Of a stretch of DNA of 32,000 bases, positions 13,588 to 32,000 are shown one piece after another. The DNA is from Idiomarina loihiensis L2TR. Its GTDB lineage: Bacteria; Pseudomonadota; Gammaproteobacteria; Enterobacterales; Alteromonadaceae. The stretch spans positions 2,190,001 through 2,222,000 of the forward strand of contig NC_006512.1 of NCBI RefSeq assembly GCF_000008465.1, in the 5' to 3' direction. The position numbers were made by a program, and so were the translations under genes. The notes beneath the pieces were generated by a model. The model did not search any database. It was not told the DNA's origin and saw only the letters and a list, made by a program, of their open reading frames with translations. Every line of letters begins with the position of its first letter. The stretch's first letter is position 1.

Positions 13588-13794
13588 CTAGCCACCAACA
13601 GCCTTCCTTATGTCTACGTCGGCCAACTTCATTTGGTCGCGCATGATATCCGAAAAAGACATGTTGGGGTTCGCCTCAGCAAGCATACCTACTTTTATCC
13701 AATACTCGGCCTGAGCATTAATAGAGCGAACCATAACTGCACTCGCCTTGCGAATTTCCCCATGCAGTTCGTCATCAATTTTGACAATTCCCAT
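13588..13794 (-). CDS. ParD-like antitoxin family protein (orphan, no adjacent toxin)
   Basis: MGIVKIDDELHGEIRKASAVMVRSINAQAEYWIKVGMLAEANP... matches my recollection of the ParD-like antitoxin family. I prefer ATG 13794 (68 aa) because the track extension to 13854 runs across a 32-bp palindrome. Confidence 0.6.
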   Translation of the reverse strand: MGIVKIDDELHGEIRKASAVMVRSINAQAEYWIKVGMLAEANPNMSFSDIMRDQMKLADVDIRKAVGG

Positions 13795-13804
13795 AGCAGC
13801 CCCT

Positions 13805-13836
13805 GAATATATGATTTGTATACGAATCATATATTC
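13805..13836. promoter_or_regulatory. near-perfect 32-bp palindrome, putative operator of the ParD-like gene
   Basis: GAATATATGATT (13805-13816) and AATCATATATTC (13825-13836) are exact reverse complements. The spacer TGTATACG contains the GTATAC palindrome. The element lies 11-42 nt upstream of ATG 13794. Confidence 0.5.
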
Positions 13837-13982
13837 AAAATGGGAGTCTTGCAATGTTAGCGCTTATTATGCCTTCTTCTTTTTGCTGAAGTGTTCCATA
13901 CGAAAACAGTAGTAGTATTGTTACTCCAATATTTGGGTTTCATTAAATGTATAGCGCCCCGGCATACTTAGTAAACGCTTGG

Positions 13983-14294
13983 TTATACGCTGCCTTCACG
14001 TTCTACCACCAGAATTCGAGCCGAGCCTTTGGGGTGAGCAACATGCTCGGTACCAATTGAAGCAAAGAAAATGTCCCCGGCGTTTAGTGTCGCAGATTTC
14101 ACTTCGTTATTTTCTTTGTACAGCATTTCTACAGTGCCATCCATTACAGCGAAAACCTCTTCGCCGTCATTTACGTGCCACTTATAAGGTTGATCTGTCC
14201 AGTGCAACCGAGTGGTAACGCCGTTCATGTTGGCAATATCTTTTGCACCCCATGCCTTATCTGCTGTGAATTGCTTACTTCTAATGACTTCCAA
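13983..14294 (-). CDS. cupin domain protein
   Basis: 103 aa; the WHVNDGEEVFAVMDGTVEM ... GDIFFASIGTEHVAHP pattern indicates a small single-domain cupin. TTG start preceded by AGGAGG. Confidence 0.7.
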   Translation of the reverse strand: MEVIRSKQFTADKAWGAKDIANMNGVTTRLHWTDQPYKWHVNDGEEVFAVMDGTVEMLYKENNEVKSATLNAGDIFFASIGTEHVAHPKGSARILVVEREGSV

Positions 14295-14374
14295 TTTATT
14301 ATCCTCCTTACTGCTACTTTTAAAAACGCATCGGCGAAGTGGAGACGAAAATAAACGTCACCGTACAGGCTAAA

Positions 14375-14920
14375 TTATAAGGAGTGTTGCTCCCACTGCT
14401 CTCTGTTTATCTTATACAAAACGTGCTCACAAAGCGGGTGAGAAGGTTCTAAGTCTGGGTGCTTAAAATTACAGGCATAGGACATTCCAATTTTTTTCAT
14501 GACGGCTTGAGAACGTATGTTTTGCGCTGTTGTAAAAGAGACCACCTCTTCTAAACCCAAGTGAGTAAAAGCATAGTGCAGTGACGCTTTAGCAGCTTCA
14601 GTCGCATAACCCTTTCCCCAATATGGTTTCGCCAGGCGCCAGCCAACTTCAACACATGGTGAGAACGGCATATTTTCTTTGGGGGTGTGCAGCCCGACAA
14701 ATCCGATAAATTGACTCTGTTCAGGAAGCTCTACAGCCCAGAAGCCCCAACCTCGATCAGCAATGAGAGACTGAATTCGTCTCGCTCCACTAAAACTTTC
14801 TTCCGCTGTCAGAAGCTTCGGAAAAAACTCCATCACGTCCTTATCGCTACACATCTGCGAAAAGAGCAGGAGATCTTCGTCATCCCATTGCCGAAGTATC
14901 AGTCTTTCCGTTCTAATCAT
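14375..14920 (-). CDS. GNAT family N-acetyltransferase (RimJ/RimL-like)
   Basis: TERLILRQW start, WGFWAVE, VGWRLAKPYWGKGYATEAAKA acetyl-CoA binding segment. Confidence 0.8.
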   Translation of the reverse strand: MIRTERLILRQWDDEDLLLFSQMCSDKDVMEFFPKLLTAEESFSGARRIQSLIADRGWGFWAVELPEQSQFIGFVGLHTPKENMPFSPCVEVGWRLAKPYWGKGYATEAAKASLHYAFTHLGLEEVVSFTTAQNIRSQAVMKKIGMSYACNFKHPDLEPSHPLCEHVLYKINREQWEQHSL

Positions 14921-14947
14921 AATTCATGTCATTTGATGCCATGTTTG

Positions 14948-15223
14948 CTAAATGCTTATCTCTTTTACTATTGCCCACAAGGAAAAGACTATGCTGACAA
15001 TAAAGCCCAGGGCCACGAGCCCTAATAAGGTGTAGAACCCGAATCGAAAGGCGTTCAAAATGCATTCGTAAACTACGGACAGCGGTGGCTTTGCTTTTAA
15101 TAGAAGGCTTCCTGTCCGAGAATTCGCGCTAAAATAGGCTGTGTAAATTGAATACAATACACCCACCGCCATCCCAACATAAGTGACTGAGAAATATGCT
15201 TCAAGAAAATGTATCCAGCCCAC
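14948..15223 (-). CDS. small hypothetical membrane protein (about 3 TM)
   Basis: Hydrophobic 91-aa ORF with a GTG start and AGGA 6 nt upstream. No family recognised. Confidence 0.4.
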   Translation of the reverse strand: MGWIHFLEAYFSVTYVGMAVGVLYSIYTAYFSANSRTGSLLLKAKPPLSVVYECILNAFRFGFYTLLGLVALGFIVSIVFSLWAIVKEISI

Positions 15224-15303
15224 TTTTTATCCTATATACATGTAATGCTCTTTAAACAGCGGCTCAGTTTACAGCGTCCGATGCCTTCACTTGTTAGCAG
15301 ATT

Positions 15304-15642
15304 CTAATCGACTTCCGAAATGAATTCGCGAACCTCGTCAGAACGTAATGGCCTCACTAGACGAGCCACTTCATTGCCATTGTGCAAGAGTATCAGAGTC
15401 GGCCAAAGCTTTACCTTGAACGCGCGCCCCAGCGGTTTGCCTTTGCCGTCGTATATTTTAATATGACGTAGCCCTGCACGTTCAGTTATTGCTTCTTTTA
15501 TCGCGGGATTTGCCGCCTGACAATGTCCACACCAGGGCGCGCCAAACTCAAGTACAACGTTACCGGATAACTCGCCAGTTTGTTCAAAGGTAAACGCTTC
15601 TTCCGCGTAATCGGAGTTAGAGCCAATATCATCGGTTTTCAT
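15304..15642 (-). CDS. thioredoxin family protein
   Basis: WCGHC active site within a 112-aa thioredoxin-sized ORF; WPTLILL cis-Pro region. Confidence 0.8.
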   Translation of the reverse strand: MKTDDIGSNSDYAEEAFTFEQTGELSGNVVLEFGAPWCGHCQAANPAIKEAITERAGLRHIKIYDGKGKPLGRAFKVKLWPTLILLHNGNEVARLVRPLRSDEVREFISEVD

Positions 15643-15647
15643 CCCAC

Positions 15648-15778
15648 TTACTCCTCACCAAGCTCGGACATCCGCAATAGCTGACTACTGCGACGCACAG
15701 TCAGAATATCAACCTGATCTTTGATGCTGTAAATAACCCGATACGATCCAGCGCAAGCGGGGATCAGATAATCTTCAT
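15648..15778 (-). pseudogene. decayed ParE/RelE-family toxin (internal out-of-frame deletion)
   Basis: An ATG overlapping the antitoxin stop (ATGA at 15775-15778) opens MKII and stops after 4 codons. A different frame then reads DYLIPACAGSYRVIYSIKDQVDILTVRRSSQLLRMSELGEE-stop (stop at 15648-15650). That is a typical RelE/ParE C-terminal beta-strand region. About 50 central codons are missing. Confidence 0.6.
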
Positions 15779-16056
15779 TGAGCAAGCCTACTCAAAACCC
15801 GAGCCTTCGCATCTTCATGCGAAATACCGTTCCCGGAAGCAATCTGTTCTTCCGCCTTGTACACCTCTTCTAGTATTTCCAGACGTTGTTGCATCTTCTC
15901 ATATTCGTGAACATCCACCAGTACTGCAACGCCTCGACCTCTTTGTGTCAGCACTATAGGACGACGGGTTTCATGGAGCTGCTTTACGAATGTGGCTACC
16001 CCTGCACGAAATTCAGACAGAGGGCGGATATCTTCATCTACTCTAACCCTTGACAT
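15775..16056 (-). CDS. Phd/YefM family antitoxin
   Basis: MSRVRVDEDIRPLSEFRAGVATFVKQLHETRRPIVLTQRGRGVAVLVDVHEYEKM... is classic Phd/YefM. ATG 16056 is preceded by GAGGTG; the track start is GTG 16065. Confidence 0.8.
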   Translation of the reverse strand: MSRVRVDEDIRPLSEFRAGVATFVKQLHETRRPIVLTQRGRGVAVLVDVHEYEKMQQRLEILEEVYKAEEQIASGNGISHEDAKARVLSRLAQ

Positions 16057-16147
16057 GGAAATCACCTCAGTACTTTTTAATGTACATCAAAGAGTACAAT
16101 AGGGCTTGGAAGCAAGCAAGGTATCTGTAGGAAAAACCAGCGCTCTG

Positions 16148-16675
16148 CTAAAGAGATGCCTGAGCGAAATTAAGCAACTTCGTAAGCTCCTTTTCGGACC
16201 AGTTCTCCAGTTCAAGAACGGCAGCGTAGGGGTCTCCAGAAATTCCCATAACCCGACAAATAGCAGGTTCTGTTTTGAGACCGCTTTCTTTAAGCTGCCG
16301 TATTCTGTCGATAAACTCATTGTCCCCGATTTTTACAAGGCGTTTCATCACCTGATAATGGCGATATGCAGTCTGCAACTCCACTGGCGTTTCTGACGCA
16401 TAGACTTCAATTAAAAATTGGTTACAGTGAAAACGACCTAAAGCGTGATCTTTGCGTGGGCGCATGCTGTATGCTTCATAGCCGGAATATGCCGACTCAA
16501 ATGCCTCGATAAACGCTTCCTGCTCCTGGTACGTACAAACGATATCGATGTCGCTTTCCTTCGTATCCAGAGAAACAAATATCGTACTAACAACTTCCGG
16601 CGAATATGCGTCGAGTTTGATCAGAACTCCCGATTCTTCTATCGCTTTGTTGGCGCGAGCTATTTTGCTATTCAT
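16148..16675 (-). CDS. nucleotidyltransferase-fold-like protein (resembles DUF4269)
   Basis: 175 aa; the SLDTKESDIDIVC segment resembles an NTase acidic motif. The overall pattern recalls DUF4269 proteins, but this is from memory only. Confidence 0.4.
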   Translation of the reverse strand: MNSKIARANKAIEESGVLIKLDAYSPEVVSTIFVSLDTKESDIDIVCTYQEQEAFIEAFESAYSGYEAYSMRPRKDHALGRFHCNQFLIEVYASETPVELQTAYRHYQVMKRLVKIGDNEFIDRIRQLKESGLKTEPAICRVMGISGDPYAAVLELENWSEKELTKLLNFAQASL

Positions 16676-17061
16676 TCCAGTCTATTGTTATATTTTTTTG
16701 ATTTAAATACATAGAACCTAAATATTAGAGCCTGAAGCGTAGCTGCCACACCGAAAACGATACCCGTCTCTAAGCCACCAAATGTTGCTATAGCGAATAC
16801 TATCAATGCGCCGGGCAACAAATAGTATAGGTATTTTGGCTTTGACCACTTACATATTGCCCAATGAAACGGGAGACCAATAGTAAGCCAACCCACAACA
16901 GATAAAGCAAGGTAAACTGAAGCAACCCACCCAAATAATGCCAGGAAATCTTGTATTGGATACATAAAAACTGGAATACCAATTTCATAAAAAGAGTAGC
17001 CCACTCCGAGAAGTAGAACCCACCCAATACTGCGGAATATTGCCCCATCCCAATTACCCAT
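16672..17061 (-). CDS. hypothetical membrane protein (4 TM)
   Basis: Hydrophobic ORF with a 4-nt overlap with the downstream gene. I prefer ATG 17061 (MGNWDGA), which has AGGAG 10 nt upstream. The track GTG 17094 lies inside an attC-like box. Confidence 0.45.
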   Translation of the reverse strand: MGNWDGAIFRSIGWVLLLGVGYSFYEIGIPVFMYPIQDFLALFGWVASVYLALSVVGWLTIGLPFHWAICKWSKPKYLYYLLPGALIVFAIATFGGLETGIVFGVAATLQALIFRFYVFKSKKYNNRLE

Positions 17062-17113
17062 TAACGCTGACTCCTGGTGAAATATAACGCCCACAGCATG
17101 GTTATGTGAGACT

Positions 17114-17671
17114 TCACAGTAACCCTTTATTTTTCTTAAACCGCCTAACCTTACTACGCATGTTTTTCATTGGTGATGATGTATTGAACTGAATCATGCG
17201 GCCCAACGTCCATTTATCGTACCAAGTAGTTTCGTAGAGATCATAGTTACTTAAGCTTGAAATCAGTGAAAGCAGTTCATTAACTGTCGATTCAAGCTCC
17301 TTTAGCAGGGCTTCATATTTCCAATCAGCATATTGTTCATGGAAATGCTCTGCAAGCAAACCCAACTGATTCCATTTAAAACCTGATTCTGGAAATTCAA
17401 CTGGCAGCCCTTGAGCCTTCAACCTATGCCATTTCAATACCAACTTACCCCAACCAATAAGGTAAGCAACCGTGTCACAGACGCTTACTTGCGTGCCTTT
17501 TATGTTTCCCTCAACATTACGTTCTCGTGTCAATTCGACAGGTATTGTCCGATAATCTGCCATAAGCTTGTCAAATATTGAGTTGATAGCAAGTTCCAAC
17601 TCTTCTTTTGATTGTGGAATGGATGAGACCGGCTTGTTATGTATTTTTCTCACAACCAGAACCTTGCACAA
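17114..17671 (-). CDS. ClbS/DfsB family four-helix-bundle protein (DUF1706)
   Basis: SKEELELAINSIFDKLMADY ... VCDTVAYLIGWGKLVLKW ... FKWNQLGLLAEHF ... WTLGRMIQFNTSSPMKN follows the ClbS/DfsB pattern. The start is uncertain: ATG 17671 or GTG 17653, both overlapping the upstream ORF. Confidence 0.65.
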   Translation of the reverse strand: MCKVLVVRKIHNKPVSSIPQSKEELELAINSIFDKLMADYRTIPVELTRERNVEGNIKGTQVSVCDTVAYLIGWGKLVLKWHRLKAQGLPVEFPESGFKWNQLGLLAEHFHEQYADWKYEALLKELESTVNELLSLISSLSNYDLYETTWYDKWTLGRMIQFNTSSPMKNMRSKVRRFKKNKGLL

Positions 17672-17951
17672 AAAATTTGAACGCGAAAAATAGCGGCAGC
17701 AAAATAGCTGACCAAATAGTTGATAAAAACAAGATAGCCATGAGGATGGATATACCGCCTCCCTCCAGCTCGAAATTAATGGCGTATGCTGTTATCACAG
17801 ATAAAACCACGCATAAAAAAGTCATTTTAATAGGTGGAAAGTAATACTTCTCAGGAAGCCATTTAGCTGATAGTGACCAAACCAGCAAACATGGCCCAGC
17901 CGAAAGACATGCCAGTAAAGCTACTGCGCCTATGAATATGATTATTTCCAA
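17637..17951 (-). CDS. small hypothetical membrane protein (3 TM)
   Basis: Hydrophobic 104-aa ORF with a TTG start and GGGAG upstream. It begins right after the attC-like element. Confidence 0.4.
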   Translation of the reverse strand: MEIIIFIGAVALLACLSAGPCLLVWSLSAKWLPEKYYFPPIKMTFLCVVLSVITAYAINFELEGGGISILMAILFLSTIWSAILLPLFFAFKFFVQGSGCEKNT

Positions 17952-17970: not shown

Positions 17971-18042
17971 ACATAACGCCCGCATTTGCGGTTGGTTTGA
18001 AGCGAAGCGGAAAACCAATCCGACAACATGCGCTTGTTAACT
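17971..18042 (-). repeat. integron attC-like imperfect inverted repeat
   Basis: Read on the minus strand directly after stop 18044: AGTTAAC-AAGCGCATGTTGTCGGATTGGTTT-[13 nt]-AAACCAACCGCAAATGCGGGC-GTTATGT. This gives an RYYYAAC-like box, arms that pair with bulged bases, and a GTTRRRY-like box. Length is 72 nt. Confidence 0.5.
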
Positions 18043-18043
18043 T

Positions 18044-19075
18044 CTAAAAATCCTCTTCAGATTTGTCCTCTAACGTATCTATACCTTCCTCTAGTTGAAT
18101 TCTCCGAGCTCGCTTCAATATTGAATTTCCTAGTTTAGTAAGACTCCAATATTCTTCTTTATCATTTACTGAATGCTTTTTCTTAGAGGGTTGCACCAAA
18201 TCTAAAGCGACCAAATCAGCTATCATTCCTTTTATCTTGTTATCTCCTATGGGCCAAGTACGAAACCAATTATTACCAACGTGCTCAAACGCAATTTCTT
18301 TAGCAATGGTTTTGCTGGAACTTTCATTGACTAAAGTTGGGGCGATCATTAAGAATATTTCGAGTAACGTGTTTCTTACTTTCTCAGCATCATCCCAGCG
18401 TCCTTTATCAGATTTTCTTCTTACCTTGAATTTTCTGGTATTGTCATCAAGGATGTGAACCAATCTCTTTTCTTCGTCTGGTTGCTCAATAGTTTTAAAC
18501 CCTTCAATTTTTTTTCTAAGTGTCGAATTCTCAGCACTCAATCTAACCAATTCTTGAGTTGCTTCAGTTGTCGGGGCGTCGGTTGCTCTCACCCAGCCAA
18601 TTCTTGGATTTAGGTTCATAGTTTTCATTAAAGAAATGGAAACTTTCCCATGAAGGTCATCTTTAGATTCCCAAAAATGAACCAATTTAGATTTCACCTT
18701 AGATTTAAAGGCTTCAAGTTTTTTAAGTTTTTTATCTGACTTGTCAATTCTACTTGATGGCCAGGAGGCATCATCGGATATAACAAACCCTAGTGTAGGC
18801 ACTCCTAAAGAGGAAGCATAATCATATTCTTTTTCAGTATAGCTAATGCCATCTTCAGTCTCAGAACCGTATCTGTGCCCAACAATTATTACGTAATAAT
18901 CTGTTTGTTCTATTTGTCTAGCGATAAGCTTCCATTGTTCTTCATCTCCAGCACTAAACATTTCCATTCCAACAGGAATATGCCCCATTTCGAGTACCGC
19001 TTTAATGACCTGCTCTCGTTCTTCTTTCAAATCATCGTAAGTTGAGCTAATAAATACTTGATATTTTTTATTCAT
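18044..19075 (-). CDS. DUF4062 (TIR/nucleoside-deoxyribosyltransferase-like) domain protein with coiled-coil and putative winged-helix C-terminus (paralog A)
   Basis: N-terminus KYQVFISSTYDDLKEEREQVIKAVLEMGHIPVGMEMF...DYYVIIVGHRYGS matches the DUF4062 signature. Central coiled coil QELVRLSAENSTLRKKIEGF. C-terminal ...EEYWSLTKLGNSILKRA. The gene is very AT-rich relative to its flanks. Confidence 0.7.
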   Translation of the reverse strand: MNKKYQVFISSTYDDLKEEREQVIKAVLEMGHIPVGMEMFSAGDEEQWKLIARQIEQTDYYVIIVGHRYGSETEDGISYTEKEYDYASSLGVPTLGFVISDDASWPSSRIDKSDKKLKKLEAFKSKVKSKLVHFWESKDDLHGKVSISLMKTMNLNPRIGWVRATDAPTTEATQELVRLSAENSTLRKKIEGFKTIEQPDEEKRLVHILDDNTRKFKVRRKSDKGRWDDAEKVRNTLLEIFLMIAPTLVNESSSKTIAKEIAFEHVGNNWFRTWPIGDNKIKGMIADLVALDLVQPSKKKHSVNDKEEYWSLTKLGNSILKRARRIQLEEGIDTLEDKSEEDF

Positions 19076-19105
19076 TGTTCCCTCAGTTCGAACAGGAAGT
19101 TAACC

Positions 19106-19134
19106 TTTGTATATTGTGCATGCGCACTTTGTAA
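19106..19134 (-). promoter_or_regulatory. putative sigma-70 promoter with operator palindrome, DUF4062 paralog A
   Basis: Minus strand: TTACAA (19134-19129), 17 nt, TACAAA (19111-19106). The spacer holds TGCGCATGCACA (plus strand 19115-19126), 5/6 arm matches to a TGTGCA|TGCACA palindrome. The same arrangement occurs at 29014-29042. Confidence 0.45.
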
Positions 19135-19411
19135 CTCACTCAATTTCTAATTCTCAGTCTTTAAGCTACTGATACAGAAAATATTTTCATCAAGTAACCA
19201 ACTAAAAAACGAAAGCAATTTAAGCATGCTCATTTCTACTCTAACGGGTGCACAATACCCAACGTTGAATTTCAATTATGTATCTGACATTAAACGAGTT
19301 AATTAGCCGATACAACAATAAATGAGCAATAATACTGATAAAAATGAGCGTTAGGTTAAACTAGAACTAAAGGTAAAATCGTTTCTCAAAAAGCCCTATG
19401 CGAGGCACACC

Positions 19412-25112: not shown

Positions 25113-26438
25113 TCAGGCAAAGTCTTTCAGCCTGAGATGCCCCTCTATTGAATCGGTAAGCGCTTTTGGCACCTCATGTTCAGTGGCTAACTCCCGCCAC
25201 TGAGACACCGCGTTAACCACATCATCAATAATGGCATCAATTTCTTTGCGCTCTACCTTGGGTAACTGAACGTCTGCCAGCGCGTAAAAGTCGGCGCGAG
25301 TATGGCCACTGCGCTTGCCATTCAACGACATCCAGTGCTGCTCTACCCAGGGGTTTCCGGGTTTGTAGCTAAAGGCAACGTCGTAAGCCGGGCTCAACCG
25401 CCACTCCTTGTCTTCCAGCATAAAACCAAAGTTCTTGGAGTGATCATCGTGGTTGGTTGCTACGTGGTTAAACACCATACGGCGAAATAAGTCTACAGCG
25501 TCCGCCCGTGGCAACCGCAGCTGGCGGGCAACCTGAAACAGCTCTTCATAAGAAAACGCGCCAATGTCGTGATAGTTCACGTGCTTAATAGCGGTAAGCG
25601 TTTGAATGTGCTTTTTCTCATTGCCTATTCTGTCAAAGCGCTTGGTCACAAAATGGCGGCGGTTGCCTTCATCCAGCAAATGGCATGGCATCATATGAAT
25701 GCCCGCTTTTGTGGCCATTAAGTAATACACATACTCCATAGCACCGTAACCGAGCGGGTCGCCAAAGGTTTGCTGAGATGGGTCGCGCTCTTTTACTCCG
25801 TCAAACTTCAGCAAGTAATGCTCAAAGCCCTCGGGCACAAGCCCCTGCCCTGAACGCACCTGGCTGAAGTCCTTATTAAACGCCAGTACCGCTTTTGGTC
25901 TTGCGCCACCGGCGCTGGTCCCAACCGCTAATAACGCCTGCATCATTTCTTTGTCTGCCGCGTCGTCAAAGTGCGTGCGCTGACGAAAGCCCTTTCGCGC
26001 ATCGAGCACTTCCTGCGCTAATCTCATTAAGCTCTCAAGCTCAATGTCTTTGTTTTTGGCGTTGGTTTGATTCTTACGCGCGGGGTGATACTCAAGAGCG
26101 CCCATGCCCCGCTCGCCGGTATACTGAAGTCGTTCAAGCGGGCTCAGGGGTTCGGTACGATCGGGCTGTTGCGCAACCCATTGGTTCAGTACCGCATTAC
26201 CAAAGTCGTCAGGCAAAGAGTCTGCCAACATACCCGGCAGACCTCTGAAGGTATCCCAATTTAACCCCGGAAAAGAGTAAATTCGTCCCTTCTCGGCAGG
26301 CATAGTTAAAGGCGCCAACGGAATGTTTTTTTCGACAAATTCAGATAAGTACTCGAACCGCGCAGCCGTGTCGCCTTTGTTATAACTTAAGGCACCGACA
26401 GGCTCGCCTTTGTAGCGAACTTCAATGGTATTAATCAC
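25113..26438 (-). CDS. hipA: HipA-family serine/threonine kinase toxin
   Basis: 441 aa, SAGGARPKA P-loop-like motif and catalytic NHDDHSKNFGF. 4-nt overlap with the upstream HTH gene. Confidence 0.9.
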   Translation of the reverse strand: MINTIEVRYKGEPVGALSYNKGDTAARFEYLSEFVEKNIPLAPLTMPAEKGRIYSFPGLNWDTFRGLPGMLADSLPDDFGNAVLNQWVAQQPDRTEPLSPLERLQYTGERGMGALEYHPARKNQTNAKNKDIELESLMRLAQEVLDARKGFRQRTHFDDAADKEMMQALLAVGTSAGGARPKAVLAFNKDFSQVRSGQGLVPEGFEHYLLKFDGVKERDPSQQTFGDPLGYGAMEYVYYLMATKAGIHMMPCHLLDEGNRRHFVTKRFDRIGNEKKHIQTLTAIKHVNYHDIGAFSYEELFQVARQLRLPRADAVDLFRRMVFNHVATNHDDHSKNFGFMLEDKEWRLSPAYDVAFSYKPGNPWVEQHWMSLNGKRSGHTRADFYALADVQLPKVERKEIDAIIDDVVNAVSQWRELATEHEVPKALTDSIEGHLRLKDFA

Positions 26439-26755
26439 CAGTCCAGCTCCTCATTGTCAGCAGGTTTCACACGCGTTTTACCGCTCGCCCGCTTCTTCTG
26501 CTTGGTGCTGCTTTTGAGTAGTTGCACAGGAGAAACGCCCTCGTCCGGGAACGCAGCCAGTAAATTGTCGATATGACCCAAAGCCTGAAGAATTGCGACA
26601 TACGTCGGTAAGGTGCTTTTACCACCCTCCGCGGATTTAACGGCATTCAGTGAGACATTAGCTAAGGTAGCCAAGTCCTCCTGAGTTAAATCCTGGTTCA
26701 GCCGATACTGCCTGACTCGCTGACCAATGATTGATGAAACACGATCAGAATCCAT
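26435..26755 (-). CDS. hipB: HipB-like XRE-family HTH antitoxin
   Basis: IGQRVRQYRLNQDLTQEDLATLANVSLNAVKSAEGG is an HTH. It is translationally coupled to hipA. Confidence 0.8.
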   Translation of the reverse strand: MDSDRVSSIIGQRVRQYRLNQDLTQEDLATLANVSLNAVKSAEGGKSTLPTYVAILQALGHIDNLLAAFPDEGVSPVQLLKSSTKQKKRASGKTRVKPADNEELDW

Positions 26756-27885: not shown

Positions 27886-27940
27886 ATTAAACCCCTCCTG
27901 TCCACCGACAGTTCTTGAAGCATCTAACGCTTTGCTAAGC

Positions 27941-28990
27941 TTACTTTAGCAACTCATTCAATATTTTTACTCGCTGCTCCTTTGTAGACTTTAAAACACC
28001 TTTCTCGTAGTTCACATATAGTGGACGTTTATTTTTCACGTAACCTTCTACTCCAAAGCAATATTTTCCAGTGGTGAACATAAGGTGTGGTTCGTTTTCT
28101 TCTACACCAAAATCACTTTCGTAGAAAAGGCCTGTTTCTAATAAGTAATCTACCCACGATTTATTCTCTGGAGTAACAGAGGCGATTTTATTGATCTCTG
28201 TATCTCCAATAAATGCATCAAGTTCTATAGTGATTGGCATCTCGTCGTCCAAGTTAAATATTTCAGCAAAAAACTTTTTAGTATTTGCATAAGTCTCTAT
28301 CTCGCTTATAGATTCCTCTACTTTAGCTTCGTCAGCGCTAGATGAACGATATAAACTCTTAACAAGAGCTTCTAATTTACCATTAGAATCTTTCAAGTTA
28401 CTCAATAAATGATTCGTAGCGTCGATTTGAGTTTTTACTTCTCTAGTTCTCAAAAACTCAAAGAAAAGTCCAGCCCATTGTTTACGTAAATGAACTTCTA
28501 TATCATTGAAATTAGAGAAACCTTCAAAAGCATTATTCACCGGAGAGCGACGAACGTCATCAATAAACTTAAATATATTTTCTGCATCATCCTGTTTTTC
28601 TACCGCAGGGAAATTTATTTTATCAATGAATTTTTGATTTCTATTTTCTCTATATATGTGATGATTATTAAGAACTGAATTTCTTATATATGTGAAAACA
28701 GGAACATTTGCAGCTTTAGCTGCTTCATATTCAGCATTAGTAATAGATTTCGACTTATCTTTAACATACCCACCACCAAATCGACCTCCAATTATTAAAA
28801 TAAAAAGTTGGCAATTTGATACTTCATGTACGCAAGCATCATGAGTATGAAGGTCAGGATGATAGAATACATCTCCATGTTCACTAAGAATTGGATCGAA
28901 ACCAAACGATCTAACGAATTTGTTCAGTTGCTCTCTTACTTCAGATAAATCAAAACACGTAGAGCTGATAAAAACTTTTGGGATAGCCAA
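27941..28990 (-). CDS. DUF4062 (TIR/nucleoside-deoxyribosyltransferase-like) domain protein with coiled-coil and unrelated C-terminal domain (paralog B)
   Basis: N-terminus IPKVFISSTCFDLSEVREQLNKFVRSFGFDPILSEHGDVF...CQLFILIIGGRFGGGY matches the DUF4062 signature. Coiled-coil middle. The C-terminal ~120 aa are unrelated to paralog A. TTG start with GGAG 6 nt upstream. Extremely AT-rich. Confidence 0.7.
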   Translation of the reverse strand: MAIPKVFISSTCFDLSEVREQLNKFVRSFGFDPILSEHGDVFYHPDLHTHDACVHEVSNCQLFILIIGGRFGGGYVKDKSKSITNAEYEAAKAANVPVFTYIRNSVLNNHHIYRENRNQKFIDKINFPAVEKQDDAENIFKFIDDVRRSPVNNAFEGFSNFNDIEVHLRKQWAGLFFEFLRTREVKTQIDATNHLLSNLKDSNGKLEALVKSLYRSSSADEAKVEESISEIETYANTKKFFAEIFNLDDEMPITIELDAFIGDTEINKIASVTPENKSWVDYLLETGLFYESDFGVEENEPHLMFTTGKYCFGVEGYVKNKRPLYVNYEKGVLKSTKEQRVKILNELLK

Positions 28991-29013
28991 TTGCTTCTCC
29001 TTTAAACTTAATA

Positions 29014-29042
29014 TTTATATATTGTGCTTGCACACTTTGTAA
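29014..29042 (-). promoter_or_regulatory. putative sigma-70 promoter with operator palindrome, DUF4062 paralog B
   Basis: Minus strand: TTACAA (29042-29037), 17 nt, TATAAA (29019-29014). The spacer holds TGTGCAAGCACA (plus strand 29023-29034), a 5+5 inverted repeat. It is homologous position by position to 19106-19134. Confidence 0.5.
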
Positions 29043-29375
29043 CTCGTTCAATTGATAGTTATTGGTTCTTAACTTACTGATAAAATGAAAATTCTGATCT
29101 TGAAGCCCTCTGAACAAGAAAAGGCAATTTGAGCATACTCAGTTACACTTTAATGGGCGCACATGTCTAAATTTAATTTTTCTTTATGTGACTGACAATA
29201 AACGACTTAAATGCACAGCACAATAACAAAACGCGCAATATTGTTGAGATAAGCGTGCAGTGCACGGTTAGCGTCATCCACTATTATTAATAACAGGATG
29301 ACTAATCATTAATTGAAGTAGACAAAGAACTTTAAAAATACCAAAGGTGGACTCATAGATGACTAGTGAGAAGTT

Positions 29376-30215: not shown

Positions 30216-30444
30216 TATTGATTTCCTATCAGCTTGAGCAAGACGCTCAGAATGGTTAACGTACTTAACCAGTTTTCACTCTTGCATTCAATAGCTTTTA
30301 CCTCGACCTCTGAATAACCTTTTGCTTATGTCCGCTAAGAGCGAACAACGGACACTTCGTATCTCTAACTTTTCACTCAAGTTGGCTAGTAAGAGTTTGG
30401 ACTCATAAGTTTGAAATTTCGCGCTCCTATATCTTGGATCGCTA

Positions 30445-32000
30445 TTAGGTCCTTTTTCTATCTTTACCCTGAAGTTCACTTAAATATTCACTTATTTGTT
30501 TCAGATCTTCTGCCATTTCTCCGATGGTAGGATAAGGGTCGCCTACAGAGGGGGCACTATCATGCCCAGTAAAGTATTTACTGCATTTAGCCATCGCTGC
30601 ATTAATTTTTGAGACATCTATATCACTAATGTCTGTTAATTGCCCCAAGCGCTTTGTTTGAATCGCACGCTCGAATCTATTAACAACCTTGTTCAATAGC
30701 TTTTCTTCAATCAGTCGCTCCCAGCTCTCCCTCAGTAGACCGTAGAATTCGCGCGACACTCGTCTGAACTCACTATCAGTTCCATTTTGATCAATCCTTC
30801 TTACTGCTTGTAACTCTGCGTTAAGTTGTTTCACACGCTTGCTGGTCGTTAATGCTTCCCATGGAGCGCTATCTCTTACTATACCTGCGAAACCTCTTCT
30901 GGAGCGTTCTAACGCACAGCTACCATGAGGAGCATTCTGTTCTTCAGCAGCTTCAAGCAATAGTTTATAAAAAACAATGTCATGAGTGAAAACAATAACT
31001 TGTCGTAAAAGAGACTCTTTAACGAGTCTTTCTGCTACACGACTTCTCCACTGATGGCTAAGCGAGTTAACAGGATCATCAAAGATTACTGCCGATTTTC
31101 TATGATCAGCTTTCATCTCTGCCAGAAAAGCAGCTATCGCTATACAGCGCTGTTCTCCCTCACTGGCAATTTTTGATACCAAAGGTTCGCCACCCTCTTC
31201 AATCACAAGCTTTAGTTGTTGCGTGCCACTTCTGTTTCTTGTTTGGGCTTTTACAGAAAAACGGATAAATCCGAATTGTTTTAGCTCTTCAGAAAAAGCC
31301 TCCAATAGTGGAGTGACCACACCATTCTGGTAGATTTGAGATGCTAGAGTCGAGACAGGCCTTGTACTACATTCTCGGCCCAAAGCCTTCATTCTAGTGA
31401 TAACTTTGTGCCTTCGAATGTTACTTATTATTGCTTCACGATTTTCAGTGACAAACTTTTTATCCTCGATCTGCTGTAGCTCTGTTTCTTTCTTTTGAAT
31501 TAACTTTTGTAAGTCGGCGTTCGACTTGATGTTTTCATGCTCTGAAACAATTGATTCAATCAATTGCTTGAGTTCTTCCAGTACAGATATGTCAAGAGCA
31601 TCTATCGACTCAGGGAGACGCGAAGGATCAATGAATAGGGGCTTGCGCGAGTTTAGTTGTTGAAATAATAACTCAAAACGTTTTTCTGTTCCGGGCCGTA
31701 ACTTCTCAAACTCAATTAGCGCTGCCCTGTGCTCTTTTAGAGAAGGGGATTGGGATGAAATTAAATTAACCGCATGAGTAACTAGTTTTAGTGCGTCAGT
31801 TGCTTCTGTTGCAGCATTATCCGCTAAGAACTTACTGAGAGACTTAAGCCTTTCGGCACTCGTATCGGATACTCTCTGTAGGCAAAAGGGGCATGTATCT
31901 CCTTCTAATGGTGGAAAACTATGGCTTTTTTCCTCTTGCTCAATAAAACTTTTCGCCGCATTCCACATCGCTTGCCAACTGACACCTGCAACCGTATCTA
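30445..32000 (-). CDS. AAA_13-type ABC/SMC-like ATPase (RloC/PrrC-like), C-terminal ~517 codons; the N-terminal Walker A part lies right of the window
   Basis: The frame stays open upstream of the track ATG 31968 to the window edge. It shows a CPFC motif in a long coiled-coil insert, an ABC signature-like EGEQRCIAIAAFLAEM, Walker B AVIFDDPVNSLSH and an H-loop VIVFTHD. A ~170-aa C-terminal domain carries LLRESWE ... KYFTGHDS. Confidence 0.65.
   Translation of the reverse strand, partial: DTVAGVSWQAMWNAAKSFIEQEEKSHSFPPLEGDTCPFCLQRVSDTSAERLKSLSKFLADNAATEATDALKLVTHAVNLISSQSPSLKEHRAALIEFEKLRPGTEKRFELLFQQLNSRKPLFIDPSRLPESIDALDISVLEELKQLIESIVSEHENIKSNADLQKLIQKKETELQQIEDKKFVTENREAIISNIRRHKVITRMKALGRECSTRPVSTLASQIYQNGVVTPLLEAFSEELKQFGFIRFSVKAQTRNRSGTQQLKLVIEEGGEPLVSKIASEGEQRCIAIAAFLAEMKADHRKSAVIFDDPVNSLSHQWRSRVAERLVKESLLRQVIVFTHDIVFYKLLLEAAEEQNAPHGSCALERSRRGFAGIVRDSAPWEALTTSKRVKQLNAELQAVRRIDQNGTDSEFRRVSREFYGLLRESWERLIEEKLLNKVVNRFERAIQTKRLGQLTDISDIDVSKINAAMAKCSKYFTGHDSAPSVGDPYPTIGEMAEDLKQISEYLSELQGKDRKRT

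Follow-up and report, generated by a model that had tools for sequence, protein, structure and literature searches.

A non-coding block repeated upstream of two DUF4062 genes of Idiomarina loihiensis probably ends at an integron recombination junction

A stretch of 32,000 nucleotides from Idiomarina loihiensis L2TR (positions 2,190,001 to 2,222,000 of the forward strand of NC_006512.1, “the window”) contains two similar non-coding blocks upstream of two genes for DUF4062 proteins. With a probability of about 0.85, the proximal end of this block is an integron recombination junction that heads arrays of gene cassettes. The similarity between the two blocks is robustly explained by a common array head and not by a history shared with the DUF4062 genes: two unrelated cassettes stand behind two copies of one head, so that the upstream regions resemble each other more closely than the genes do. 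Concerning the mechanism, the chances are about even that the block is an attI-like docking site. The block upstream of the gene DUF4062-A is designated A, and that upstream of DUF4062-B is designated B. All copies were read on the minus strand, and a slash within a sequence indicates the crossover.

The block upstream of the two DUF4062 genes

19345-19104, minus strand: core of block A, about 242 nt by local alignment, 3' end ...CACAATATACAAAGG directly before the crossover
29012-29256, minus strand: core of block B, about 245 nt, 3' end ...CACAATATATAAATA, crossover G mutated to A at 29012
29257-29375, minus strand: distal extension of B, less conserved, common to copies L021, L024, L027, L028, and L030 and partly to L022
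18044-19075, minus strand: open reading frame (ORF) of DUF4062-A
27941-28990, minus strand: ORF of DUF4062-B, the TTG start of which is preceded by a good AAGGAG

The similarity had been noticed in a first-pass annotation made from the letters alone, and its three anchors between A and B were reproduced exactly, with 32/36, 25/33, and 23/27 identical positions. Local alignment gave about 69% identity between 19104-19345 in A and 29012-29256 in B, and a Smith-Waterman alignment of both intergenic regions joined A 19097-19343 to B 29005-29252 with three indels of 1 nt each. The score of this alignment was 91, compared to 12.0 ± 1.6 and a maximum of 19 in 500 dinucleotide shuffles and to 18 at most for other window segments on either strand. 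The pair was also recovered by repeat finding and by MAFFT, and the nhmmer profile matches covered 19345-19101 (E 1e-58) and 29256-29009 (E 5e-68). The non-coding similarity upstream of the two DUF4062 genes is real and survives the shuffled controls. The extent of about 250 bp originally assigned to it stands, but the upstream end of B is extended by another ~120 nt (to about 29375), and this extension is common to six copies elsewhere. This distal extension of B holds a small hairpin followed by a T-run and reached a majority fraction of 0.5-0.68 in the alignments, versus 0.8-0.93 in the core; no consistent attC fold was found in it. A 10-mer of the extension, TATGAGTCCA (29337-29346, minus strand), recurs at 30390-30399 (minus strand) in the intergenic region between an AAA_13 gene and an esterase gene, and the other long copies contain an equivalent motif, TATGAGCGA, followed by CGGAC, which is also frequent in the center of true attC sites. 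This may be the trace of an old attC.

Both downstream proteins contain the Pfam domain DUF4062, with E values of 5e-33 and 8e-24. As had been annotated, they are alike only N-terminally, with 31% identity over 98 residues, and the remainder is unrelated.

Further copies and the genes behind them

A third I. loihiensis copy, C, was recognized on contigs that encode the exact A and B proteins. The other copies were collected by exact-pattern scans with the most conserved stretch, one scan of species-representative genomes and one of metagenomes.

L011:5426-5672, minus strand: third I. loihiensis copy, C, at about window 33.3-33.6 kb, about 1.3 kb past the right window end
L021: copy of Aliidiomarina iranensis
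L022: copy of Idiomarina zobellii, last ~48 nt only
L023: copy of a metagenome-assembled genome of the Idiomarinaceae, identical in sequence to L030
L024, L026 (same sequence as L027), L028, and L031: copies on marine metagenome contigs

One additional metagenome match, L029, was a chance match inside a coding ORF and was discarded. The pairwise identity among the copies was 63-82% in the 245-nt core, with 76% between C and B. I. loihiensis has three copies within a stretch of about 35 kb, which abuts gcvTHP beyond copy C. No match to the block was found in plasmid and phage collections by blastn in distant mode. Many metagenome and draft genome assemblies (contigs L036-L039 and L046-L050) break inside or just after the block, as expected of a repeat with strain-variable flanks; such junctions are systematically lost from short-read assemblies.

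The block has the same orientation in every copy, directly 5' of a gene. The genes behind the blocks are mutually unrelated and belong to at least nine types, so that the idea of an element always preceding DUF4062-type genes fails. Types in addition to the DUF4062 genes were

a 169-aa ORF, then AbiEi/AbiEii
a DUF5808 ORF, then DUF4209/PDC-S39
HNH/PDC-M68A
GFA-family proteins
a 107-aa ORF, then a Pycsar pair (PycTM and cyclase)
an Mrr-type nuclease
membrane proteins

The membrane proteins include those of copy C, which precedes two membrane-protein genes without Pfam match. Copy C heads a cassette for a 191-aa membrane protein, which is followed by an attC, CCATAAC...GGCG/TTAAGT, and by a gene for a protein of 325 aa.

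A junction at one nucleotide

The similarity of every copy runs to ...ACAATATAYAAATG/TTA and then ceases. All distinct junctions (11/11) are located at one nucleotide, after ...AAATG/TTA. A sharp boundary exists on this proximal side only; the distal side is ragged, with A, C, and the long copies starting at differing points.

19101-19107, minus strand: junction A, AAAGG/TTA, with the crossover between G19104 and T19103 and the cassette opening with TTAACT

Junction A is at the same time the end of the homology with the related strain L012 (window 19101) and the start of the homology with a cassette of integron L051, described below.

Since a crude attC scanner misses most sites, the complementarity between the outer motifs R'' and R' of a cassette was tested in its place. 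The complement of the junction's own heptamer, the G plus the first 6 nt, was searched at most 40 nt from the end of the first ORF. It was found exactly at 6/11 junctions, and near matches were obtained for L028 (6/7) and C (5/7). Foreign heptamers, taken from other junctions, gave 0/104 in the same test. The R'' heptamers open attC-like hairpins ending with GTTRRRY, and the chain continues in the successive cassettes of L012, L022, and L028. An exact complement of R'' and R' is the signature of a cassette that was once circularized. The true attC sites found here form a heterogeneous set with lengths of 57-113 nt and have no relation to the block; they could not be aligned by MAFFT, and a covariance-model route for attC was dropped. 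A compact attC of about 50 nt at the proximal end of the block was also considered and rejected, its folds being inconsistent. As at an attI site, the cassettes join at the G/TT of a GTTRRRY-type core at the head of the array, and the first cassette is variable. The published cleavage position of attI is likewise G/TTA.

The genes behind the blocks differ between strains. The related strain L012, with 96.7% identity over 12.9 kb, has kept block A with 95.6% identity up to ...AAAGGTTA, followed by two other cassettes, for a 167-aa membrane protein and a DUF4440 protein, each with an exact R'' GCATAAC. L045 has block B with 100% identity and a different gene (101 aa) behind it. Of the roles proposed for the block in the first-pass annotation, that of a recombination handle for cassette exchange fits these observations, with a cassette junction precise to the nucleotide and other genes behind A in L012 and behind B in L045.

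The DUF4062 genes as integron cassettes

17977-19103, minus strand: DUF4062-A integron cassette, composed of TTAACT..., the ORF, the attC, and ...G
17971-18042, minus strand: attC of the DUF4062-A cassette, 72 nt, AGTTAAC...GCGGGCG/TTATGT, an imperfect hairpin with bulged bases and a DNA folding energy of -14 kcal/mol
27928-29011, minus strand: DUF4062-B cassette, composed of TTAAGT..., the ORF, and a truncated attC
27921-27940, minus strand: attC remnant of DUF4062-B, GCTTAGCAAAGCG/TTAGAT, comprising just the last 14 nt of the attC of L057

The R'' of the DUF4062-A cassette, AGTTAAC, is the exact reverse complement (7/7) of GTTAACT, which is composed of the final G of the block and the next six bases. 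Full-length homologs of DUF4062-A with 55-91% identity occur in Vibrio, Shewanella, Pseudomonas, Psychrobacter, Burkholderia, and others. The homolog with 91% identity, P0002, is encoded by the fifth cassette of the complete integron L051, the divergent gene of which encodes IntI (TIGR02249 with 419 bits, cut-off 265). The DNA of the window and L051 is 84% identical over 1075 nt, from G/TTAACTT to just past the R'' AGTTAACAAG, and an ordinary attC is located upstream of the DUF4062-A cassette in L051. The cassette is also present in L056 with the same G/TTAACTT start, the same ends, and a near-identical attC behind different upstream DNA; a by-eye resemblance of this upstream DNA to the block was not significant. 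This environmental integron, L051:3258-13068, is complete and carries no fewer than nine cassettes, including those for the DUF4062 protein, a protein with DUF4379 and HEPN_RiboL-PSP, and a RelA_SpoT-domain protein, and its attI region contains repeated GGAAAATTTTC inverted motifs.

DUF4062-B represents a family separate from that of A and is likewise widespread. Its homolog in L057, with 87% identity, starts with ...AAACTG/TTAATTTTACAGGAGAAG at the same junction. Behind this homolog is a full attC of about 95 nt ending with GCTTAGCAAAGCG/TTATGC, with a match of 5/7 for R''. The truncation of the attC in the window and the G-to-A exchange of the crossover base at 29012 indicate that B is an immobilized cassette. 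Taken together, the DUF4062 genes possess a 3' attC (the full site of B being seen in L057) and the R'' complement, and they recur elsewhere, A also in an array beside IntI. DUF4062-A and DUF4062-B are independently acquired mobile integron cassettes that were never coduplicated with the block.

It had been argued that non-coding DNA outlasting its coding sequence implies direct selection on the DNA or RNA. Selection of this kind on a DUF4062 leader is not supported, the two genes being independently acquired cassettes from two families. The sole orthologous comparison, B with L057, even shows the opposite: the proteins are 87% identical, and the block is recognizable over the last ~32 nt alone (anchored alignment with P ≤ 0.001 for six of eight copies, the remainder of the block not significant).

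Promoter-like region, repeats, and folding

19106-19135, minus strand: promoter-like region of A, with GTTACA (19135-19130), the palindrome GTGCGCATGCAC (19127-19116), and TATACA or TACAAA (19113-19106)
29014-29043, minus strand: promoter-like region of B, with GTTACA (29043-29038), GTGTGCAAGCAC (29035-29024), and TATATA or TATAAA (29021-29014)
19251-19257, minus strand: TATTGTG repeat, site 3 in A, with the inverted partner CACAATA (19118-19112) in the promoter-like region
29240-29234 and 29225-29219: direct TATTGTG repeats in B, with an inverted one at 29026-29020

The last ~45 nt are the most conserved part of the family, with 0.92-0.93 in the last 30 columns. Their conserved layout is GT(T or G)ACA, a spacer of 16-18 nt with a GTGC..GCAC palindrome, and TATAYA or TAYAAA. 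In copy C, this region contains a perfect 16-bp palindrome, ATTGTGCGCGCACAAT. The promoter annotated in the proximal 30 bp was not confirmed: a consensus promoter scanner remained silent, which is due to a −10 motif without T at position 6 (−7). The cassettes carry their own ribosome-binding sites 20-50 nt after the junction. Without promoters of their own, they need one upstream; judged from the sequence, the block most likely supplies this promoter, with a start about at the junction.

The motif TATTGYG or its inverse CRCAATA occurs 2-3 times per block versus 0.08 expected (P ≤ 0.004 in 7/8 copies), which lends some support to the earlier suggestion of a multi-site operator array. An enrichment of the integrase core, TAAC or GTTA, in the block was not significant. 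The distal hexamer pairs are present as originally written, TTGTAT-17-TAATGT in A and TTGTGC-17-TATTGT in B. The leader RNA of about 190 nt that was proposed to start from them was not confirmed: there was no Rfam match, and the consensus fold is weak, with -15.8 kcal/mol over 250 nt, a positive (unfavorable) covariation term, and about the same value for the opposite strand. Rfam was searched with the whole window at gathering thresholds and with block B at E ≤ 10 and gave nothing relevant; no tRNA or tmRNA was found, and no terminator was called in A or B. A cis-regulatory RNA should have a covarying structure tied to one gene class; found were this weak fold and unrelated downstream genes.

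A long-range inverted repeat connects site 3, ATATTGTGCG, with CGCACAATAT in the promoter-like region. This “helix 2” comprises 16 pairs, and its stem forms on the opposite strand, too. An attC is a hairpin of 57-141 nt in which R'' pairs with R' and L'' with L', the structure being conserved and not the sequence. In some copies, a fold of about 188 nt combines a pairing of ACATAAC with GTTAT and the 16-pair stem; it is asymmetric, R'' is mutated in 4/8 copies, and the 5' arm is absent in L022.

DISCUSSION

Evidence for and against an attI-like docking site

The block is viewed here as an attI-like, double-stranded docking site because the copies are located at the heads of arrays, only the proximal edge is sharp, and the last 45 nt are the best-conserved part. 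The I. zobellii copy also favors this reading: only about 48 nt are kept, no hairpin is possible, and this copy still heads two perfect cassettes. The diverged site of L057, too, has kept no more than the last ~32 nt. Upstream of the blocks, the crude scan returned one weak attC candidate, L022 1280-1378, at a distance of about 2.7 kb from the junction. The attC of circular cassettes would have been recombined with the block, between the G and the TT, by an integron integrase that acts in trans or was once present, and each new cassette would have landed directly behind the block. The 3-4 TATTGYGC repeats, three direct ones and one inverted inside the promoter, may bind the recombinase or a repressor, and the promoter of the block would express the array, with transcription starting about at the junction. 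The analysis demonstrates the copy number, the precise junction, the cassette nature of both genes, their replacement between strains, and the lack of a nearby intI, and from these the attI-like mechanism, the promoter activity, and the role of the repeats are inferred.

Several results weigh against an attI-like site. By definition, an attI site is located next to intI, and the block-bearing loci adjoin no integrase gene: tblastn with the IntI of L051 found no IntI homolog at any of them, covering 4-15 kb of upstream DNA for seven copies, and the Pfam listings agree. An IntI1 sequence also gave no tblastn match beside any block. The homolog search with the IntI of L051 yielded environmental relatives only and no integrase from the Idiomarinaceae, the whole genomes of which were outside this search. 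The attI region of L051 has no similarity to the block. Behind the first genes of B, L021, and L030, there is no clean attC within the sequence at hand, and the break on L045 is 11 nt beyond the consensus crossover, which means that this replacement was not a clean integrase event. The promoter scanner called neither A nor B at the proximal site. Moreover, 4/16 pairs of helix 2 were changed on both sides with the pairing kept, as expected of a folded attC and not of a double-stranded attI. To our knowledge, a genome with more than one attI-like site has no precedent, and this reading does not account for the multiplication of the block.

The main rival, unlikely but to be taken seriously, is a mobile “promoter cassette” without a gene, which the integrase would move like other cassettes. 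In this case, the 3' part of the block, about 188 nt, would be an overlong attC, with ACATAAC as R'', site 3 and the palindrome as stem, and GTTA as R', and arrays at secondary genomic sites would survive only if such a cassette heads them. Gene-less cassettes with sense-strand promoter activity exist in Vibrio superintegrons (Blanco et al. 2024, PMC11014356), and insertion of cassettes outside att sites is documented, as are integrase-less arrays of the SALIN and CALIN types (Loot et al., 10.1101/2022.09.11.507474). Mobility would account for the multiple copies and for their identity of 70-85% across genera. When L024, C, and L027 are folded as single-stranded DNA, ACATAAC is paired with GTTAT(GT), and, adding to the double changes in helix 2, the whole structure has 10 pairs with double changes versus 4.7 ± 1.5 in shuffles (0/500). 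A cassette, however, has a G/TT junction on both sides, and no 5' boundary of the block can be defined; a candidate upstream attC folds inconsistently. The ACATAAC matches the candidate 5' end TTATTA with only 5/7, compared to 7/7 in real cassettes here, and A, B, L021, and L030 have mutations in R''. Such an attC would be strongly asymmetric, with its sequence conserved rather than its structure. The block was never seen within an array, and the I. zobellii copy, composed of the 3' arm alone, heads cassettes nevertheless.

The remaining explanations are less probable than a promoter cassette. An ordinary multi-copy promoter or operator for one TATTGYGC-binding factor, followed directly by a strong secondary target of the integrase (attG-type GTT) at which landed cassettes are expressed and kept, is improbable. 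It would agree with the abundance of the repeat, one copy of which forms the palindrome in the promoter spacer, and attG insertion near promoters does lead to expression (Loot et al., 10.1101/2022.09.11.507474). On the other hand, attG sites are short and promiscuous (GWT core), and 11 junctions at one nucleotide in copies with 63-82% identity argue for a dedicated site; no copy was found before a plausible “native” non-cassette gene, and no candidate regulator gene accompanies the block. A cis-regulatory 5' leader or small RNA, which would start from the distal TTGTRY-17-TAWTGT pair and control the downstream gene, is very improbable. The hexamer pair is conserved in position, some covariation exceeds the shuffle controls, and a variable hairpin with a T-rich run was seen by eye in the middle of the block in several copies, but no Rfam family matched even at permissive thresholds, the fold is weak and about equal on the opposite strand, and no terminator was called. 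The unrelated downstream genes, each with its own ribosome-binding site, offer no common target, and I. zobellii and L057 retain just the last 32-48 nt. Hardly any weight is given to a miniature inverted-repeat transposable element, or the remnant of an insertion sequence end, with an outward promoter. The block is multi-copy, non-coding, and about 250-370 bp long, it has internal and near-terminal inverted TATTGTGC repeats, and metagenome assemblies break there; such an element should nevertheless have terminal inverted repeats, target-site duplications, and insertions in either orientation. No duplications were found, the distal end is undefined, and all copies point the same way, directly 5' of where a gene starts. 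On the proximal side, the neighbor is always an integron cassette with matching R'', and plasmids and phages gave no match. The least probable explanation is a small protein, for instance, a toxin-like peptide ...LRVLLLCCVFKSFxVNxITKxQSWILCAR: an open frame with conserved translation exists in C, L024, L027, L028, and L030, but indels of 1 nt or early stops interrupt it in A, B, and L021 (3/8 copies), there is no consistent start codon or ribosome-binding site, and L027 has no stop codon. Remnants of group II introns or of IS1111-attC elements were rejected, since there was no Rfam intron match and the ends do not fit.

Decaying arrays and neighboring genes

17082-17107, minus strand: collapsed attC remnant of array A, ACATAAC-N12-GTTATAT, a 26-nt mini-site
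17636-17642, minus strand: orphan R'' ACATAAC of array A, overlapping the stop of a 104-aa ORF and running into the DUF1706 reading frame

The preceding attC ends with GTTATGT, to which ACATAAC is complementary. The two attC remnants of array A suggest that internal deletions froze this array. With the exchanged crossover base and the truncated attC of B added, the system is decaying in this strain. The minus-strand region from 13588 to 17951 contains small same-strand genes for DUF1706 and DUF4269 proteins, a Phd/YefM antitoxin without an obvious toxin, a thioredoxin, an acetyltransferase, a cupin, and a ParD-like protein. This gene run is typical of cassette arrays; the crude scan, which misses most sites, found hardly any recognizable attC in it.

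Downstream of the DUF4062-B array, at 25113-26755 on the minus strand, a HipA-like kinase of 441 aa (Couple_hipA, HipA_C) and its upstream HTH_31 partner of 106 aa form a hipBA-type toxin-antitoxin pair. Between B and C, at 30445-31968 on the minus strand and running past the window end, is the part of an AAA_13 ATPase gene that encodes the last 507 of 863 aa, a candidate defense gene according to PADLOC (PDC-S06, E 1.5e-194); copy C is divergent from this gene. Directly upstream of the I. zobellii copy, at L022:1418-3999, are two tandem PD-Lambda-1-like genes (DUF4041 and T5orf172), with a PADLOC E value of 2e-101 for the second. At L028:787-2115, a complete Pycsar pair of PycTM effector and nucleotide cyclase forms a single integron cassette with the attC AGCTAAC...GAG/TTATCA, the R'' of which matches the preceding GTTAGCT exactly.

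Relation to known integron elements and meaning

The block resembles an attI/Pc platform, being a non-coding array head at which cassettes join between the G and the TT of a GTTA core, with a strain-variable first cassette and a promoter-like element aimed into the array. The site attI1 is composed of DR1 and DR2 plus the L and R sites, and the short repeats of the block, three direct and one inverted, are reminiscent of this layout. At attI, IntI binds to the simple site and to the direct repeats and recombines the DNA in double-stranded form. Unlike attI, the block has no adjacent intI and occurs in at least three copies in one genome and in further genera, and unlike attI1 with its ~65 bp, it is conserved over 245-370 nt. 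What the block has in common with the gene-less Vibrio promoter cassettes (Blanco et al. 2024, PMC11014356) is that it is non-coding, occurs in several copies, and probably provides a sense-strand promoter for the next cassette; unlike these, it displays neither a 5' junction nor a canonical attC and is always first, not internal. With the CALIN and SALIN clusters (Cury et al. 2016, PMC4889954; Loot et al., 10.1101/2022.09.11.507474), it shares attC cassettes with no integrase nearby and, as for attG insertions, an expression that depends on a promoter at the insertion site. However, attG sites are short, degenerate, and scattered, and here one conserved sequence of ~250 bp is reused at the same nucleotide. 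Like the Vibrio cholerae repeats, the block is a conserved repeat just upstream of unrelated cassette ORFs that ends with ...GTTA, but it does not separate successive cassettes, and the true attC sites here are unrelated to it. Since the block lacks the adjacent intI of an attI site and the 5' junction of a cassette, it is set apart as a variant. The cassettes themselves belong to the ordinary integron cassette class; the block is an array head that is conserved, multi-copy, and integrase-less. A literature search on Idiomarina integrons found nothing.

For annotation, the example calls for caution, because a similarity that is higher upstream than in the genes themselves can stem from cassette exchange and not from selection on a leader. 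Integron cassettes are considered a reservoir of anti-phage genes (Darracq et al.). The two single-gene DUF4062 families travel beside Pycsar, Mrr, HNH, and PDC-type cassettes, which supports this view and marks DUF4062 proteins as defense candidates.

Integrase-less clusters are about as numerous as complete integrons in bacterial genomes, and both the origin of CALIN and SALIN and the expression of their promoterless cassettes are debated (Loot et al., 10.1101/2022.09.11.507474). A reusable head with a crossover site and a promoter-like element would answer these questions for one bacterial family. As a tentative extension, the Idiomarinaceae may possess a “distributed integron” of dispersed attI-type platforms, each with a terminator, operator-like repeats, and a promoter, at which an integrase encoded elsewhere would build and express small, largely anti-phage arrays. 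If true, this would be a new integron architecture and a concrete origin for expressed CALIN and SALIN arrays.

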